From UHGV virus genome UHGV-0135550: a DNA stretch of 18,754 bases; one strand, written 5' to 3'. Of this stretch, positions 2,868-15,163 are shown piece after piece. The translations under genes and the position numbers were made by a program. The notes below the pieces were generated by a model. The model saw only the letters and a program-made list of their open reading frames with translations, did no database searches and was not told the origin of the DNA. The first letter of the stretch is position 1. Every line of letters begins with the position of its first letter. The DNA comes from a virus.

Positions 2868-2942
<75 letters not shown>

Positions 2943-2945
2943 ATA

Positions 2946-3021
<76 letters not shown>

Positions 3022-3023
3022 AA

Positions 3024-3100
3024 TGGACCGTCACCGGAGACTCGAACCCCGCGCCATCAACTTCGAAGGCTGATGCTCTATCCGGATGAGCTAGTGACGG
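3024..3100 (-). tRNA. tRNA-Arg (anticodon UCG)
   Basis: Minus strand CCGTCACTAGCTCATCCGGATAGAGCATCAGCCTTCGAAGTTGATGGCGCGGGGTTCGAGTCTCCGGTGACGGTCCA: 7-bp acceptor stem (C1-G72), D-loop with GG, anticodon loop CTTCGAA, T-loop TTCGAGT, encoded CCA. Confidence 0.7.
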
Positions 3101-3327: not shown

Positions 3328-3396
3328 TACTTACCTTTCTCACACCAAATGTAAAAGCAATATTTTTTGATAATCCTGTTGTTTAAAGGGAATAGC

Positions 3397-6300
3397 ATGA
3401 AATCAATTGTACACTTATCCGACTTACACTTATCAGACTCAAAAAAATATGGTTTTCACTGGAAGAAAGCCAAAGAACTGGTCACAGTATTAGTTAATGA
3501 TATACATTCATTAAGTAAAGAAAACAACCTCCAGATAGATGCCATTTTTTTTACTGGGGATTTAACGTTTTCTGGAACCAAAGAGCAATTTCAACTATTT
3601 GATGAACATTTCCTCTCTCCACTTATTCAAAAGCTGAACATCAGTAAAAAAAACATTTTTATAACCCCAGGCAATCATGATGTGGACAGAAGTAAAGTTC
3701 ATCCACTTGAAAAACAACTGCGAACTGGTTCGGACGAAAATTTCATATCATCATACTTTGATATGATAAATAATGGAAAGTATTCATGGGAACGTCTCTA
3801 CGAGTACTGTGAATATAATAAAACAATATTAGATCATCATTCTGATGTTGAACAATCTGGACGCATGATTACATGCTTTAAAGTAACAAACAAATTATAC
3901 GTCGTTAGCGTAAATAGCGCATGGTTAGCTATGGATGATAATGATATTGGTAACTTACGAATTACCCAAAAGCAAATTGATTTTATCAATCGTGCCAAAA
4001 TACCTTCTGATGCAAAAATAATATTATTATGCCATCATCCTTTAGATTGGTTGAATAAGAATGATCGTGACATTTTTTCAACATTTATTGAAAAAAAAGT
4101 TTCAATGTTCTTTTTTGGTCATATGCATGATTTTAAACAAAAACTAGAATCTAGTTTTTGTGAAAACATCACCCTCTTTTTGCAAGCAGGAACTTTGGAT
4201 ACTAGTGAAAATGTATCAGGCTATTCATTAATAAATTTTAATAGTTCAAATGTCATATCAGACGGAAGAATTTTTTATAGAAAATATAATAAAGAAAAAA
4301 CATGCTATGAACCATGGGAAGAAAGAGGAAATGGTGGTGTTTTTGATTTCACCACTGAGAAAACTCTAACTTTTGACTCTGAAAAATTTGCAACATTATC
4401 TAATGAGATTCTAGAGAAAACTGATAAGGATTTATTAATTAACATTGGAATCTCTGATGAAAAGAAAAAAAGTCTAAGAACTCTATTTACTGAACCAAAT
4501 TTCCTTGAATTTGCTCTTGGAGCCATGCCTTCTATGGAGATTAAGTCCACACAAGAATTACTAGAAGGACGAAACAACCTTGTGATTGTAGGAAACCATA
4601 GCTCAGGTAAAACATCTCTTTTAAAATACCTATTCATTAAGAGTCTAGAAAAACAAGCCAGCAAAGACTTCAGTAACTTTGCATTTTTCTTAGATTTAAA
4701 TGCAATTGAATTAAATAGCTTAAATACAATTGTAAGCGCATTATGTACACAATATTTCAATGCAGATTCGACCACATCTTTTGAAGAAAAAATTAAAAAA
4801 ATGTTACATGAGGGAAGATGTGTTATATATATTGATAATCTGGACAATATAAATACAAAAGAACAATGTGTAATTTCTGATTTTTTTATAAAATTCAAAG
4901 AATGTAGATTTATCGTAACTGCTGGCTATAATAATTCAGATCTGGTAGTTAAAATATTATCAGATGAAAGTAAAGCTAAATTTCATGCAATTGCTATAGG
5001 TTCATTACGCAGATCTAATGTTCGCGATATTGTATCAAGATGGCACGACACAACATCACAAAATATAATATATAAAGAAATCACGCGAACAATCAACAAT
5101 TCGCAACTTCCTCATAATTATTTTACATACTCAATGCTTTTAGCTATTTATGAAGTTGATCATGACGTTAAAGGAATATTAAGTGAGTCTGATATTATAG
5201 AAAACTTCATAGAAATTTTGCTTCGTAAACATTTTATGGATACTCCGCCTAATAAGCCACAATTTAAAGAACTTCGACATTTTCTTGGATATTTAGGATT
5301 TACATTATTCAAAAACAAATGTAATTTTATTTCAAATAATGAACTTCTGCAGACTGCAATAATTTTCAATAGAGATACCATGCATGATTATCAAGTAGAA
5401 GACTATATAAAACCATTAAAAGAATGTGGAATATTGAAAGAAGAGCTATGTAATGTGATTTTCTCGCAGCCTTGCTTTTTATACTATTCCATCGCTTATT
5501 TCATGAAGCATAACGAAGAGCTAAAGAAAGAAATTTTATCCGATAATAATTACCTACATCTACATAAAGTTATTGAATACTATTCATCGCAGAACTCATC
5601 TAGTCTTGATTTATTATACTTACTTAAAAAGAAGACTAATGCAATCAAATCTTCTTTATCTGAACGAATGCTCGAAGATAAGGGAATAAATATTGAAGAT
5701 ATAAAGATTGAAGACTCTAATACTTTCTCTATTTTAGATATGGTATCAACCCAAGATGATTTCGAAAAAAAGATAGAATCACTCCGTGCAGATAGAGAAA
5801 AAGATGACGCGCGACTAGATGAATTATCACCTTTATCTGATAAAGATAAAAAAGCTAATATATCAAATGTTAGAGCTGAAGGTAATAATAATCTGTTACA
5901 TGATCTTATTAACACTTTATCTCTTTATGCAAGGGTATTCCGTAGTACTGAATTATCTATGGAAAGAGAAAATATATTAAATATATTTAATGACCTTGTA
6001 AAGGGTTATGTTTTTTACATGAAAGCGTCACTAGTACTAATGGATGATTCATTTGTTCTTCCAGTAATACTCCCTGCATTAGAAAAGAAAATGCAAGAGG
6101 ATAAATTAACCGATAACGAAAGGCAACGAGTTTTTGAAATGTTTAAACTAGTATTGTCTTTAGTTCGCTCAATGATCCCAAATAACATACAGTTTATTAT
6201 GAGCAATGACTTAAGCTCGAAAAAACCACGTATTGCAAACATTATTACTGAATCAAAAGACTCAAATAGCAATCCTGTAGAAAAGGCTATTTTAACTTTC

Positions 6301-6549
6301 ACCTTAATGGATATTAAAGATGAAATGGTTATACAATTAGCTAACGATTTAGCAAAGATACAAAACAAAGTTGTTCAAGAATCTCTTTTCTTCAAGATTA
6401 ATCAAATTATAACAAGTAACTATGATTTAAAAAGAACTGAAGAAGAAGCATTGAAAGAGTTAGCAAAAAACATTGGCATTAAAAGAAAATTAATTCTCAC
6501 ACCCAAGATTAGTGATGCCTTTAATACGTTAAACCGCATAGGACATTAA
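3397..6549 (+). CDS. Large multidomain protein: N-terminal calcineurin-like metallophosphoesterase, central NACHT/STAND-like P-loop NTPase, C-terminal helical domain; candidate antiphage defense protein
   Basis: Metallophosphoesterase motifs DxH (D9-L-H11), GD (54-55), GNHD (92-95), HH (213-214), GHMH (241-244); Walker A GNHSSGKT (399-406); Walker B-like VIYIDNLD (about 476-483) followed by FIVTAG; ATG at 3397 with AAAGGGA RBS (TTG at 3367 is the ORF-track start). Confidence 0.8.
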   Translation: MKSIVHLSDLHLSDSKKYGFHWKKAKELVTVLVNDIHSLSKENNLQIDAIFFTGDLTFSGTKEQFQLFDEHFLSPLIQKLNISKKNIFITPGNHDVDRSKVHPLEKQLRTGSDENFISSYFDMINNGKYSWERLYEYCEYNKTILDHHSDVEQSGRMITCFKVTNKLYVVSVNSAWLAMDDNDIGNLRITQKQIDFINRAKIPSDAKIILLCHHPLDWLNKNDRDIFSTFIEKKVSMFFFGHMHDFKQKLESSFCENITLFLQAGTLDTSENVSGYSLINFNSSNVISDGRIFYRKYNKEKTCYEPWEERGNGGVFDFTTEKTLTFDSEKFATLSNEILEKTDKDLLINIGISDEKKKSLRTLFTEPNFLEFALGAMPSMEIKSTQELLEGRNNLVIVGNHSSGKTSLLKYLFIKSLEKQASKDFSNFAFFLDLNAIELNSLNTIVSALCTQYFNADSTTSFEEKIKKMLHEGRCVIYIDNLDNINTKEQCVISDFFIKFKECRFIVTAGYNNSDLVVKILSDESKAKFHAIAIGSLRRSNVRDIVSRWHDTTSQNIIYKEITRTINNSQLPHNYFTYSMLLAIYEVDHDVKGILSESDIIENFIEILLRKHFMDTPPNKPQFKELRHFLGYLGFTLFKNKCNFISNNELLQTAIIFNRDTMHDYQVEDYIKPLKECGILKEELCNVIFSQPCFLYYSIAYFMKHNEELKKEILSDNNYLHLHKVIEYYSSQNSSSLDLLYLLKKKTNAIKSSLSERMLEDKGINIEDIKIEDSNTFSILDMVSTQDDFEKKIESLRADREKDDARLDELSPLSDKDKKANISNVRAEGNNNLLHDLINTLSLYARVFRSTELSMERENILNIFNDLVKGYVFYMKASLVLMDDSFVLPVILPALEKKMQEDKLTDNERQRVFEMFKLVLSLVRSMIPNNIQFIMSNDLSSKKPRIANIITESKDSNSNPVEKAILTFTLMDIKDEMVIQLANDLAKIQNKVVQESLFFKINQIITSNYDLKRTEEEALKELAKNIGIKRKLILTPKISDAFNTLNRIGH

Positions 6550-7063: not shown

Positions 7064-7408
7064 CTATTTTATGAAATAAAAACACCCTTCAATAAAACCT
7101 AAAGCAGTTTGCAATTCCTTTCTAATCGTACCGTCCGAACATTTTCGCCTCTTCGCAATAGTTCTAAGCGAAATACCAATAACAAAATGAGCTATAATTA
7201 GCTCATATTCCTCTGGTTTATACTTACACAGGCGGGCAACACAGCCGTCTATCATGATGCCTTCATCATCATCACACTGAAGGCGTATTTTTTTACCATG
7301 AGGTAAAAGCCCCTTAAAGCCTGCTGCTATCGGCTGCCAGTCCACACCACTGTTATCTGCTGCAGCCCATGCTCCCCAGCGGTCCAAAACTTCATACATA
7401 TCACGCAT
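7064..7408 (-). CDS. Late-gene antitermination protein Q (small Q family, non-lambda type)
   Basis: N-terminal LDRWGAWAA motif and Cys-rich core (QCDDDEGIMIDGC ... KCSDG) as I recall for phage antiterminator Q family; ATG at 7406-7408 with GGAGAAA RBS (TTG at 7423 is the ORF-track start). Confidence 0.75.
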   Translation of the reverse strand: MRDMYEVLDRWGAWAAADNSGVDWQPIAAGFKGLLPHGKKIRLQCDDDEGIMIDGCVARLCKYKPEEYELIIAHFVIGISLRTIAKRRKCSDGTIRKELQTALGFIEGCFYFIK

Positions 7409-7425
7409 CAACTTTCTCCACAAAA

Positions 7426-11748: not shown

Positions 11749-12577
11749 GACGATGCCCTCCGCTGATATTCAGGAGACGGTGAATATGAAAATTAGCCTT
11801 ATCCGCCAAACGGATACGTTCAGCCTGCAAGTTAAGAAGGGTTTCTACCAGAACCTGATGCGCCTGCGGATCCGAAAGAGTTACCTTGCGCAGAGCACGT
11901 AGTGCAGTTGTTACATAACTGAGTTTATGTAAGTCTTCATCATTCAGACGAGTGAGGGCTGGGACAGTAGCCATGATGGCAGCCTCCGTATGCAATGGAT
12001 AACTTCCACCACCGGAAACGCCAATTTCGCTGGTGGTGAACTGAGCAGGGTTGGCGTAACCGGCGCATACGGAAACCGGCGCACCTTTCGGTGCCCCCAC
12101 CCAGCCCACCATAATTTGGGTATAGCTGAGTTGTAGCAACAAAAAAGACGCTAACGCGCCAATTGTCGCCGTATGCAATTCCAGGACGCCAATCCCGGCA
12201 CCCGCTTTATAAGGTGCCTGAACAGTGTAACGTCCCGGAATGGCAGAATCAATGTGCTGGTGGTCCTTCACACTCAACAAAATCACGCCTGAATTTCCAC
12301 AAAGGACTAAAGCACTCATGCGGGTAGTCTTTGCGAAGATAGATAACGCGCTGTGTTTCTGGCTCCCAACGAATAACATGGACATAAAGCCCTCTTCCGT
12401 CACGAAACCAGCGGTTAAGTTCCTGCACAACTCGCCCCCCACAGTCAGGTAAAGTTCTCTGTGGTTACTTACAGCCAGGTGATTTGGTAATCTGCATTCA
12501 TGCCGTAACAACAGGTGTGCAGCGACACTGACCACCAGCTGTTGCGACAAACGGTTATTTGCCGTTAAACTGTTCAT
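11741..12577 (-). CDS. Hypothetical protein (278 aa) in the early-right operon
   Basis: ATG at 12575-12577 with GGAGAAA RBS; ATGA overlap with the upstream gene stop and 8-nt overlap with the downstream gene; no recognisable motif. Confidence 0.45.
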   Translation of the reverse strand: MNSLTANNRLSQQLVVSVAAHLLLRHECRLPNHLAVSNHRELYLTVGGELCRNLTAGFVTEEGFMSMLFVGSQKHSALSIFAKTTRMSALVLCGNSGVILLSVKDHQHIDSAIPGRYTVQAPYKAGAGIGVLELHTATIGALASFLLLQLSYTQIMVGWVGAPKGAPVSVCAGYANPAQFTTSEIGVSGGGSYPLHTEAAIMATVPALTRLNDEDLHKLSYVTTALRALRKVTLSDPQAHQVLVETLLNLQAERIRLADKANFHIHRLLNISGGHRHA

Positions 12578-13369: not shown

Positions 13370-13459
13370 ACAATATGTACCTCCGGTATACATATTACAT
13401 GATTTAGATGAACCTTCAAGGTACTTGTACCTTATCGGTACAAAGGTTTTAATTTCTTT
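13370..13459. promoter_or_regulatory. Divergent immunity control region (PR-like / PRM-like promoters and operators)
   Basis: Operator-like ATGTAC-N7-ATACAT at 13375-13393; palindrome AGGTAC-TT-GTACCT at 13418-13431; candidate PRM -35 TTGTAC (13425-13430) and -10 TTTAAT (13448-13453) implying a near-leaderless CI mRNA. Confidence 0.5.
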
Positions 13460-14134
13460 ATGAAAACAGTCCATGACATCCGGCGGTCTAACGCCAGAAA
13501 ACTGAGAGATGGTGTTGGCGGGAATTCTTCCTTTGCCACCATGATTGATCGCGAGCCAACCCAGACCAGCAGGTTTATGGGAGATGGTGCTACTAAAAAT
13601 ATCGGTGACAGCATGGCGCGGCACATCGAAAAATGTTTCGACCTGCCTGTCGGATGGCTTGATCAAGAACACCAGACCACGAACATCACAAAAAAACCTG
13701 ATGTTTCAATCACTAACAAACAAATAACGTTAGTCCCTGTCATATCATGGGTACAGGCCGGAGCATGGAAAGAAGTTGGCTATTCTGAGGTTGATTTGAG
13801 CACAGCAGAAACTTACCCCTGCCCTGTACCCTGTGGCGAAATGACTTATATCTTGCGGGTGATTGGTGATTCAATGATTGATGAGTACCGCCCGGGAGAC
13901 ATGATTTTTGTTGATCCTGAAGTCCCTGCCTGCCACGGTGACGACGTTATTGCATTGATGCACGATACAGGCGAAACCACCTTCAAGCGGTTGATAGAAG
14001 ATGGAACACAGCGTTACCTCAAAGCATTAAACCCAAACTGGCCTGAACCTTACATTAAGATCAACGGTAATTGCTCTATAATTGGTACAGTGATTTTCTC
14101 AGGAAAACCAAGAAGATACATAATAAAGGCCTAA
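13460..14134 (+). CDS. CI-like repressor (HTH plus LexA/S24 peptidase-like C-terminal domain)
   Basis: N-terminal HTH-like region; C-terminal GDSMIDEYRPGDMIFVD ... TTFKRL consistent with an S24 autopeptidase Ser/Lys dyad; divergent from Cro-like gene. Confidence 0.8.
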   Translation: MKTVHDIRRSNARKLRDGVGGNSSFATMIDREPTQTSRFMGDGATKNIGDSMARHIEKCFDLPVGWLDQEHQTTNITKKPDVSITNKQITLVPVISWVQAGAWKEVGYSEVDLSTAETYPCPVPCGEMTYILRVIGDSMIDEYRPGDMIFVDPEVPACHGDDVIALMHDTGETTFKRLIEDGTQRYLKALNPNWPEPYIKINGNCSIIGTVIFSGKPRRYIIKA

Positions 14135-14145
14135 TCAATATTTAT

Positions 14146-14168
14146 AACCTGCTTCGGCAGGTTTTTTT
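14146..14168 (+). terminator. Rho-independent terminator after the CI-like gene
   Basis: Stem AACCTGC / GCAGGTT with TTCG loop, followed by TTTTTTT (through 14168). Confidence 0.75.
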
Positions 14169-14172
14169 ATAC

Positions 14173-14206
14173 TTGACAATGTACCCATGAGATACATAAT
14201 GTATCT
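14173..14206 (+). promoter_or_regulatory. PL-like early-left promoter with overlapping operators
   Basis: Perfect -35 TTGACA (14173-14178), 16/17-bp spacer, -10 CATAAT/ATAATG (14195-14201); operator ATGTAC-N7-ATACAT (14179-14197) in the spacer; second palindrome AGATACAT-A-ATGTATCT (14190-14206) over the -10. Confidence 0.55.
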
Positions 14207-14617
14207 AAAAGAAACACAACACAGGCAAGATTAAACAAAATTTGGTTGTAACACGGCGTATGGCACATGCGTCGTTAGCGGTCTGGGGACGTTAAAGGGG
14301 ACAATCCACTCCTTGCTCGGGCAAACAAACCAGGTAGCCGGAATGTGCAAGTCAATGATGATGCTGATAAGACGCCTAACCAGCGTGGCGATTCGGTTTG
14401 ACGCCTGGGAAGAGACCAGGGTGCAACGATGAGGGCATTTATGGAGCCGTGACAAAGTGTGGTGCCGTAACTGGCTAAGTGCTCTCAGCGTTGTGGTAAT
14501 CCGCGAAATGGCGCGGCGGTAAGTATGGCGGGGTTACTCTTTCCCCGTTGAGGACACCGGATTGTCAGGTTGACCATACGCCTGAGTGACAACCCCACCA
14601 CAACAGCCACTGCTTTG

Positions 14618-14663
14618 GCGGTACCAGTTTGTCCCCTTGCTTCCGGCTGGTACCGCTCTTTTT
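14618..14663 (+). terminator. Strong intrinsic terminator inside the early-left leader (tL-like)
   Basis: Perfect 10-bp inverted repeat GCGGTACCAG / CTGGTACCGC (14618-14627 / 14647-14656), 19-nt loop, followed by TCTTTTTA. Confidence 0.6.
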
Positions 14664-14800
14664 ACAAAACAGAGAAGAGCATCACCGGACGACGGGCTCA
14701 TAACCCAATCCATCCGGGCGGCTGCCACCGCAGGTGTTCTTCTCTGTTTTGTGGAGAAACCAACCGACCTTGCAGGGTCGATATGATGAGGAGCAGCAAA

Positions 14801-15163
14801 ATGGCTAGCGAACGCAGTACTGATGTGCAGGCATTTATCGGGGAGCTGGACGGCGGCGTATTTGAAACCAAAATCGGCGCAGTTCTCAGTGAAGTCGCTT
14901 CCGGTGTGATGAACACGAAAACCAAAGGGAAGGTCTCACTCAACCTGGAAATCGAACCATTTGATGAGAACCGTGTGAAAATCAAACACAAACTCTCATA
15001 TGTTCGCCCGACTAACCGCGGGAAAATTTCCGAAGAAGACACCACCGAAACGCCGATGTATGTCAATCGCGGTGGTCGCCTGACTATTCTGCAGGAAGAC
15101 CAGGGACAATTACTGACTCTTGCCGGTGAACCTGACGGAAAACTCCGCGCAGCAGGTCATTAA
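14801..15163 (+). CDS. yfdP: YfdP-like prophage protein (120 aa)
   Basis: ATG at 14801 with GAGGAG RBS (7-nt spacing); length and neighbourhood match the yfdP-yfdQ-yfdR-yfdS module of E. coli CPS-53-type prophages as I recall it; the ORF-track start at 14570 is an upstream extension. Confidence 0.55.
   Translation: MASERSTDVQAFIGELDGGVFETKIGAVLSEVASGVMNTKTKGKVSLNLEIEPFDENRVKIKHKLSYVRPTNRGKISEEDTTETPMYVNRGGRLTILQEDQGQLLTLAGEPDGKLRAAGH

Follow-up and report, generated by a model that had tools for sequence, protein, structure and literature searches.

In the virus genome UHGV-0135550 from UHGV, a stretch of 18,754 nucleotides (nt; hereafter the window, always meant at its full length), positions 14207-14800 form an early-left leader that runs for ∼600 nt from a PL-like promoter to the start of yfdP at 14801. 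We found that this leader encodes no protein; it is a row of four conserved RNA modules, independently distributed, each backed by compensatory base changes, and all on the plus strand: module A (14248-14493), module B (14488-14608), a DicF-type hairpin with its scaffold (14609-14664) and module C (14664-14752). Its nearest known counterpart lies in prophage Qin of Escherichia coli K-12, in the untranslated dicF region of that prophage's dicBF operon. At a probability of about 0.6, we read the leader as a dicBF-type unit in which partial termination and 5′ trimming would release a DicF-like small RNA, read-through transcripts would be cut in module C before yfdPQR, and modules A and B would be autonomous RNAs.

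The original prediction, made from the letters of the DNA, had treated the leader as one untranslated unit. The unit dissolved under comparison: the leader is a mosaic of modules A, B and C that recur in P1, in phiV10-like phages and in most E. coli genomes. In a sensitive search of phage genomes different pieces of the leader matched unrelated phages, and local alignment then delimited the four modules. Window positions 14240-14496 are 79-83% identical to P1 (trnI-ban interval) and to phiV10-like phages just 5′ of their tRNA-Arg gene; positions 14490-14612 are 89% identical to the 123 nt directly 5′ of dicF in K-12 prophage Qin, and 75% identical to the annotated ‘dicF-like region’ after the C1-controlled Pban promoter of P1; positions 14616-14810 recur in SfV, ST64B, phiNP and others. 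Measured against shuffled sequences, the plus-strand fold of the leader has a z-score of -4.85, and that of its 3′ part (14609-14803) a z-score of -7.25.

The untranslated character of the stretch, claimed from the outset, was borne out. Between 14201 and 14805 there is no ATG-started open reading frame (ORF) of at least 25 amino acids (aa); every ORF detected begins with TTG or GTG. Those within modules A and B are intact in just 2-9 of 25-28 homologues, the remainder being interrupted by frameshifts or stops. Two plus-strand ORFs, 14570-14806 and 14586-14786, are intact in 23 of 25 homologues; as the alignments reach only their first 23-39 nt, this conservation is uninformative. RefSeq places no annotation at all between ymfK and yfdP.

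Module A is a pseudoknotted structured RNA with a core at 14248-14429 followed by a 3′ hairpin, H6. The core contains helix H1 (14254-14274), helix H2 (14283-14286 with 14330-14333), an invariant single strand GGUAGCCGGAAUGUGCAAG (14333-14351), H4 (14372-14386), whose loop AACC pairs with GGUU at 14395-14398 to make the pseudoknot, and helix H5 (14404-14420). Copies were collected from two scans of IMG/VR and one scan of species-representative genomes, and 29 diverse sequences, taken from ∼38 clusters below 90% identity, were aligned. Over the five helices, pseudoknot included, 96.8% of the cells were paired and 11 of the 25 pairs (64 cells) had changed on both sides; when the 3′ partners were slid by 1-3 columns, only 28-49% of cells still paired. 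One U-G pair is invariant and one G-U pair is frequent; both would be mismatched on the opposite strand. Such G-U and U-G pairs occur in modules A, B and C, which are therefore plus-strand RNAs.

The stretches between the helices of module A, GGUAGCCGGAAUGUGCAAG among them, are invariant across P1-like, phiV10-like and lambdoid lineages; for GGUAGCCGGAAUGUGCAAG this is partly so by construction, because it served as the pattern by which most copies were collected. All 23 genome copies retrieved by an independent pattern based on H1 scored 125-167 bits end to end. The covariance model of module A (R1) found a single copy in the window, at 148.6 bits, and scored 140.5 bits in P1; it found none in the HK022, HK639 or K-12 loci. 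Among 185,579 species genomes all 23 true matches were in Enterobacterales, bar one short contig binned as Bacillota. This 1.7-kb contig of a Bacillota metagenome-assembled genome (locus L286) carries a full-length module A at 161 bits; as every other genome match belongs to Enterobacterales, it is probably a case of contamination or misbinning. Of 5426 complete E. coli genomes, 1833 (34%) carry module A, which also occurs in P1-type plasmids; 554 placements are on plasmids, and an annotated feature, a ‘hypothetical protein’, lay under the match in one of 25 sampled rows.

Considering 125 contexts of module A, we saw a tRNA-Arg gene at a fixed distance 3′ in ∼30 of them, module B 3′ in ∼25 and a P1-type tRNA 5′ in ∼20; in several unrelated immunity regions module A begins 20-80 nt past the promoter that follows a cI-like gene. 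Hairpin H6 (14423-14493; GCAACGAUGAGGGCAUU ... AAGUGCUCUCAGCGUUG, with a variable tip) is a long hairpin predicted in most variants of the module and absent from the P1 copy; its stem takes such forms as GAGAGCAUU/AGUGCUCUC, AAGAGCAUUG/CAGUGCUCUU and GAGCGCACUUC/GGAGUGCGCUC, in predicted folds whose pairs were judged by eye. The end of H6, and of module A, is the exact junction at which either tRNA-Arg or module B starts, depending on the phage. In the window the 3′ strand of H6 (CGUUG) overlaps at 14489-14496 the 5′ strand of the closing stem of module B (GUUGUGG; compare locus L007, 1738-1745), and in phiV10-like phages the tRNA-Arg gene begins at the same junction (CGUU, then GUGGCAUUAGCUCA). 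Sharing of the junction makes tRNA-Arg and module B interchangeable cassettes there, and the coincidence of the end of module A with their starts suggests 3′-end formation by tRNA-type processing. The linkage of module A to tRNA genes, together with the swap of tRNA-Arg and module B, points to processing of the RNase P type as a route by which phage non-coding RNAs are released.

Module B is a structured RNA bounded by a closing stem, GUUGUGG/CCACAAC (14490-14496 with 14598-14604). Inside it are the P2 hairpin (14501-14516), P3 (CGGU/ACCG), a variable hairpin (14529-14547), the P6 strands (within 14562-14592) and a pseudoknot formed by GUAUGG with CCAUAC (14574-14579). A model built from 26 sequences (R2) scored 140.2 bits in the window, 146.3 bits in K-12 Qin and 87.6 bits in P1 after Pban. 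With 57 distinct sequences aligned to this model, 96.2% of cells were paired and 8 pairs (32 cells) had changed on both sides, as against 35-63% paired in the slid controls. The pseudoknot (GYAUGG with CCAURC) and P3 show one compensatory change each; thus, support for module B is real and thinner than for module A, its covariation stemming from few independent events. The module occurs in 4346 of the 5426 complete E. coli genomes (80%), in up to 8 copies per genome, and an annotated feature lay under the match in none of 12 sampled rows. The K-12 copy occupies the 120 nt immediately 5′ of dicF. Across loci modules A and B are found independently of each other.

None of modules A, B and C matches a family of Rfam 15 (4227 models): the Rfam/Infernal search that had been proposed as a check on the leader returned, for 14100-14850, chance-level matches only, whether run at the gathering threshold or at E<=10; module B of K-12 had no Rfam match either. 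The companion check, conservation of structure across relatives, yielded the covariation seen in A, B and C. ARAGORN placed tRNAs of the window only at 2868-3100, and the Rfam tRNA and tmRNA models gave no hit at E<=10 in the leader; a tRNA-like or signal recognition particle-like nature of A and B, considered on account of sequence resemblance, is supported by no model. A literature search with the invariant strings brought up nothing relevant; older work (King 2011, Faubladier & Bouche 1994, Lobocka 2004) may mention a conserved sequence upstream of dicF. Modules A and B, neither in Rfam nor found in the literature searched, are each apparently an undescribed RNA family.

Immediately after module B comes the DicF-type scaffold with its intrinsic terminator (14609-14664: UUUGGCGGUACCAG, loop UUUGUCCCCUUGCUUCCGG, CUGGUACCGCU, then CUUUUU). 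In the hairpin proper GGCGGUACCAG (14617-14627) pairs with CUGGUACCGCU (14647-14657) in a stem of 10-11 base pairs (bp) with a 19-nt loop, followed by CUUUUU at 14658-14663; its computed energy is -21.2 kcal/mol. A consensus terminator scanner missed it because that scanner limits the loop to 8 nt. In agreement with the original prediction, the hairpin (14617-14663) is predicted to stop PL transcripts, ∼457 nt from the inferred start. Its place after module B matches that of DicF in K-12 Qin. We saw the same succession, module B and then a hairpin, at ∼127 loci, in which the base and tail are conserved (UUUGGCGG...CCGCC-CUUUUU), the upper stem is variable and the loop hypervariable; 61 of these hairpins are of the canonical DicF type, 24 of the window type and 13 of the P1 type, with several singletons. 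The loops are long (12-20 nt) and C/U-rich. Three or four positions of the window loop (14628-14646) vary (GUCCCC, GUACAC, GUACCC, GUGCAC; loci L002, L041, L095, L113) among leaders that are otherwise ∼99% identical, which looks like diversifying change of a pairing surface.

The small regulatory RNA or processed leader that the original prediction had offered among its options gains from these data: the hairpin stands at the position of DicF, after a homologous 120-nt element, and shares the DicF scaffold. Judged from position (in a repressor-controlled prophage operon, after an element of ∼120 nt and before a long stem) and from the predicted GGCGG/CCGCC terminator base with its U tail, the window hairpin is DicF-like; it is so by position and scaffold, and is not a member of the Rfam family.

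Module C (14664-14752) begins right after the U-run of the terminator with an 18-bp basal stem (14664-14681 with 14735-14752) that encloses three hairpins: 14685-14717, with an inner GGG/CCC hairpin, and 14718-14731. The 12 sequences compared come from Escherichia, Citrobacter, Kosakonia, Phytobacter, Pseudescherichia and viral contigs; among them 93.2% of cells were paired, and 9 pairs (28 cells) had changed on both sides. K-12 has a similar layout, a 21-bp stem with a branched insert that begins 8 nt past the DicF U-run. The RNase III cut reported in the K-12 read-through RNA, 19 nt downstream, would thus fall in the 5′ strand of that stem; by analogy, the like layout of the window makes module C a likely RNase III site. 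Between module C and the gene are a small hairpin, CGACC-UUGCAG-GGUCG (14765-14780), invariant in the few homologues that cover it, and the Shine-Dalgarno sequence GAGGAG (14788-14793); the ATG of yfdP at 14801 has its equivalent in the RefSeq start.

Transcription of the leader can be assigned to a PL-like sigma-70 promoter at 14173-14200, TTGACA-16 nt-CATAAT, with 11 of 12 consensus positions; a promoter is also annotated at this site in the record of phage Ayreon. An operator-like repeat, ATGTAC-N8-ATACAT (14179-14198), overlaps the promoter and has a second copy at 13375-13394, between cI and cro. Occurrence of this repeat at both places makes TTGACA-16 nt-CATAAT a credible repressor-controlled early-left promoter. 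Upstream of it lie the cI-like gene (ymfK, 13460-14134) and the intrinsic terminator of that gene (14146-14170; hairpin 14146-14163, with a 7-bp stem, a 4-nt loop and a T-run, -9.9 kcal/mol), which is annotated as a terminator in phages Ayreon and SfV.

Biogenesis of K-12 DicF offers a guide to how such a leader could work. DicF, a proven trans-acting small RNA (PMC5069750), binds Hfq and arises by early Rho-independent termination with RNase E-dependent processing of its 5′ end, whereas a cut by RNase III in the read-through dicBF RNA gives a 72-nt DicF that exceeds the terminated form by 19 nt (PMC5069750, PMC9438474). In the leader, by our favoured reading, loss of the cI-like repressor would let RNA polymerase start near 14207 and transcribe module A, module B and the DicF-type hairpin. 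The hairpin would be a partial intrinsic terminator (3′ end 14663), and the terminated transcripts would be trimmed at the 5′ side, as RNase E trims DicF, down to a small RNA of ∼50 nt, probably bound by Hfq and acting in trans. The long C/U-rich loop would serve as its base-pairing surface, with targets that, the loop being unlike that of DicF, are probably not ftsZ. Polymerases reading through would enter module C; cutting in its 18-bp basal stem would detach the yfdP-yfdQ-yfdR message from the RNAs upstream and fix both the 5′ end and the translatability of that message. The same transcript would also give rise to modules A and B as autonomous folded RNAs, with the 3′ end of A made by tRNA-type processing.

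Beside the absence of coding, the promoter and operator, the covarying structures, the synteny with the dicF locus and the documented biogenesis of DicF, two further observations speak for this dicBF-type reading. Protein-coding genes lie past the terminator in three contexts (dicB in Qin; the tRNAs and ban in P1; yfdPQR here), so read-through must occur. Also, a loop that is hypervariable among otherwise ∼99% identical leaders is as expected of a pairing surface.

Several points weigh against it. The Rfam DicF model RF00039 (gathering threshold 48 bits), to which K-12 DicF scores 76.7 bits, has no match at E<=10 on 14596-14672 or on 14100-14850. The window hairpin is without the 5′ single-stranded arm of DicF. 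Module B is separated from the hairpin by a short spacer of ∼9 nt that is not AU-rich, so that processing by RNase E in the K-12 manner is not assured. Pairing of the window loop with the ftsZ translation start is computed at -14.2 kcal/mol (z = 0.0, p∼0.49), no better than for shuffled sequences, and ftsZ was rejected as a target of this variant. Finally, the reading gives no function to module A or module B, two thirds of the leader, and the long invariant single strands in both suggest a specific partner that it leaves unnamed.

For the same start region of ftsZ, canonical DicF reaches -20.2 kcal/mol (p = 0.018) and the variant at locus L157 of IMG/VR -20.7 kcal/mol (p = 0.010). The loop of the latter, AGUUUCUCUCC, is antisense to the Shine-Dalgarno region of ftsZ (GGAGAGAAACU) over exactly matching 11 nt, beating canonical DicF.

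We also considered pairing of the loop within the leader. The window loop (14629-14648) holds a perfect 10-nt complement of AAGGGGACAA in module A (14294-14303), and its 3′ part complements the invariant AGCCGGAA-UGU-GCAAG of module A (14336-14351) over 8+5 nt. This pairing was rejected: it shows no covariation in relatives, and its duplex z-score is only -1.8. The Pas small RNAs of pathogenic E. coli were set aside as well, since their place is in the late region, close to Q and to the lysis genes, and not in the leader.

Comparison with known systems places the leader nearest to the dicBF operon (ydfABC-dicF-dicB) of Qin. Both are repressor-controlled prophage operons in which the module B sequence precedes a GGCGG-based hairpin with CUUUUU, then a long near-perfect stem with a branched insert and then protein genes. 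They differ in that Qin has three small ORFs ahead of the region and no module A. Compared with Qin DicF, the window hairpin is longer in its stem and has another loop, and the downstream genes are yfdPQR in the window versus dicB in Qin. In P1 (NC_005856) the ‘dicF-like region’ past the C1-controlled Pban likewise consists of module B, an intrinsic terminator and genes beyond, with module A between trnI and ban; there, however, a 2.3-kb interval containing tRNA genes and tciABC divides A from B, the hairpin base is different and the loop is short. A functional analogue is the lambda PL leader, which contains nutL and an RNase III-sensitive hairpin ahead of N. In both, the early-left leader is untranslated and structured, and a large hairpin, a plausible RNase III site for control of the first gene, stands just 5′ of the ribosome-binding site of that gene; the window differs in having no N and no conserved boxA or boxB, in being three times longer and in carrying an internal terminator/small RNA. 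Phage T4 makes the stable species 1 and 2 RNAs, co-transcribed with its tRNA genes, and ROOL and GOLLD are large phage- and tRNA-associated RNAs. Module A resembles them in its complex fold and in adjoining tRNA genes in P1-like and phiV10-like phages; no sequence or Rfam relation to them was found, and module A is ∼190-245 nt long and restricted to Enterobacterales.

A different function for the leader was contained in the original prediction: a cis-acting antiterminator RNA similar to put of HK022. Its premise, the lack of an N-like gene, withstood scrutiny. A Pfam scan of the left operon, covering YfdP, YfdQ, YfdR and three small downstream ORFs, revealed no N-like domain; the only antiterminator is Q (7064-7423, minus strand). 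In HK022 and HK639 put is a non-coding RNA just past PL in N-less lambdoid phages; it suppresses downstream terminators in cis via the beta′ zinc-binding domain of RNA polymerase. In position, and in position only, the leader is like put, with the promoter at 14173-14200 and module A from 14248. It is unlike put in structure: put has two stems, measures ∼70 nt and has a strongly conserved sequence of its own (GUCGAACGGCGCGAC..AAACCAUGCGUCGG..GGCGGG..GGCAAU..), which the leader does not have, whereas modules A and B are larger, pseudoknotted and also found away from promoters. A put model (R3) built from 18 put sequences scored 96 bits for HK022 putL, 91 for HK639 putL and 50 for HK022 putR; with filters off it found nothing in 14207-14800 at E<=10. 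Conversely, the models of A and B found nothing in HK022 or HK639. Homology to put was thus dropped, although the first hairpin has a short string in common with HK022 putL (ACGGCG...CAUGCGUCG) that had at first been suggestive.

The model did return one weak match elsewhere in the window, at 408-468 on the minus strand (18 bits, rough E ∼0.008), with most of the conserved put positions missing; it is probably due to chance. In the HK639 record (locus L233, 37910-37969) an ‘M3-like RNA’ is annotated after the CII-like gene, besides the putL-like RNA. A boxA-like sequence in the window, CGCUCUUUUUACAA (14654-14667), was discarded because it is the 3′ strand of the terminator with its U-run, and reads GCCCUUU or GACCUUU in relatives. 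Consensus boxA was found in one of 125 related leaders and not in the window; that sole case, the viral contig at locus L089, has a perfect rrn-type boxA, UGCUCUUUAACAA, ∼130 nt past the module A motif.

One could still suppose that A, B or both are processive antiterminators of put-like function and unrelated sequence, modifying the RNA polymerase from which they emerge so that it passes the DicF-type terminator and later ones; the yfdPQR group of lambdoid phages would thereby have a device for early antitermination that does not depend on N. Several facts make the idea attractive. The mechanism of early antitermination is stated to be unknown in a related N-less phage (PMC12315714), module A takes the putL position in the many unrelated immunity regions where it lies 20-80 nt past repressor-controlled promoters, module B is always directly 5′ of an intrinsic terminator with genes beyond, and long invariant single strands in both would fit contact with a conserved host machine. 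Against this, similarity to put is missing in either direction; module A of P1 follows tRNA genes, 2.3 kb away from the promoter; the operon that it heads in phiV10-like phages is very short, tRNA-Arg and one gene, with little for processive antitermination to do; A and B occur independently; and in K-12 termination at the DicF hairpin right after module B is documented (PMC5069750, PMC9438474). On balance we find this function, the chief rival to our reading, unlikely, and we hold with equally low confidence the fuller claim that A and B are two undescribed pseudoknotted phage RNA families of which at least one is a new, put-unrelated cis-acting antiterminator. If true, it would explain early-gene expression in the N-less yfdPQR group (SfV, ST64B, cdtI, many Stx2 phages, LLS) and in the P1 ban operon.

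Still less probable, in our estimation, is a riboswitch or attenuator, with module B as an aptamer sensing a ligand or an RNA, the hairpin as the expression platform for downstream genes and the small RNA as a by-product. The layout is the classical one, a conserved pseudoknotted domain of ∼115 nt directly 5′ of an intrinsic terminator at every locus examined. However, no conserved alternative (antiterminator) pairing between B and the hairpin was seen by eye among the variants, a formal search not having been made; the base of the P1 hairpin is unrelated to the other hairpin bases; the closing stem bounds module B in the manner of an autonomous domain; the hairpin loops, with their length, C/U-richness and hypervariability, are unlike the short loops of terminators; and canonical DicF is trans-acting.

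The conserved blocks could also act as DNA, whether as recombination linkers at mosaic junctions, as protein-binding sites or as an origin. Sharp mosaic boundaries and the recurrence of the modules in very different phage backgrounds would suit such a role; yet the helices are kept by compensatory changes, the U-G and G-U pairs would be A-C mismatches on the other strand, and orientation to the upstream promoter is constant, so that we regard a role at the DNA level as very improbable. Least credible is translation of short leader ORFs, such as those annotated in Ayreon or the TTG/GTG ORFs, for although phage records list ‘hypothetical proteins’ here and ORFs of 26-78 aa are present, none starts with ATG, RefSeq annotates none, those inside A and B are broken in most homologues, and variation tracks RNA pairing, not codons.

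These modules are conserved structured RNAs, occurring at large scale in a region that annotation of E. coli genomes leaves blank. DicF seems to belong to a family of cassettes whose scaffold is fixed and whose pairing loop is hypervariable, and such a family suggests that prophages diversify the specificity of their small RNAs. For the question of how N-less yfdPQR lambdoid phages pass early terminators (PMC12315714), the leader supplies defined RNA elements and their coordinates.

Other related leaders measure 0.5-1.1 kb and contain further recurrent non-coding cassettes (loci L035, L036, L075 and L098, after module A; L008, 2436-2470), one of which reads CCAUUCACGYUAAGCAUC...GGGACUGGAAGAGUUACCACUUGGAGACGGUCC. 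The GUGGUGAAUGCG block of related leaders is also present in the dicF-dicB spacer of Qin.

As a whole, the window belongs with the lambdoid prophages of cdtI/Ayreon/SfV type. Around the leader, 681 bases are 98-99% identical to phages cdtI, Ayreon and 2H10 and to fifteen Stx2c phages, and up to 99.9% identical to E. coli chromosomes, where the RefSeq gene order is a LexA-family repressor (ymfK), the blank stretch and then yfdP, yfdQ and yfdR. Strain NADC1036 has a genome that is not collinear with the left part of the window. An ORF of 1060 aa occupies 3367-6549 on the plus strand. Three phage tRNA genes, Gly(tcc), Thr(tgt) and Arg(tcg), are clustered at 2868-3100 on the minus strand; models R1 and R2 found no copy of module A or B beside them. 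The rightward operon, on the minus strand, encodes a Cro-like helix-turn-helix protein, a CII-like protein and the Q antiterminator. In this operon (12029-12217, minus strand) a C4 antisense RNA of Rfam (12029-12116, 80.7 bits) adjoins the Hfq-binding RNA IsrK (12141-12217, 61.2 bits), a pair that suggests RNA control of an antirepressor or antiterminator module of the P1 immI or Gifsy type.

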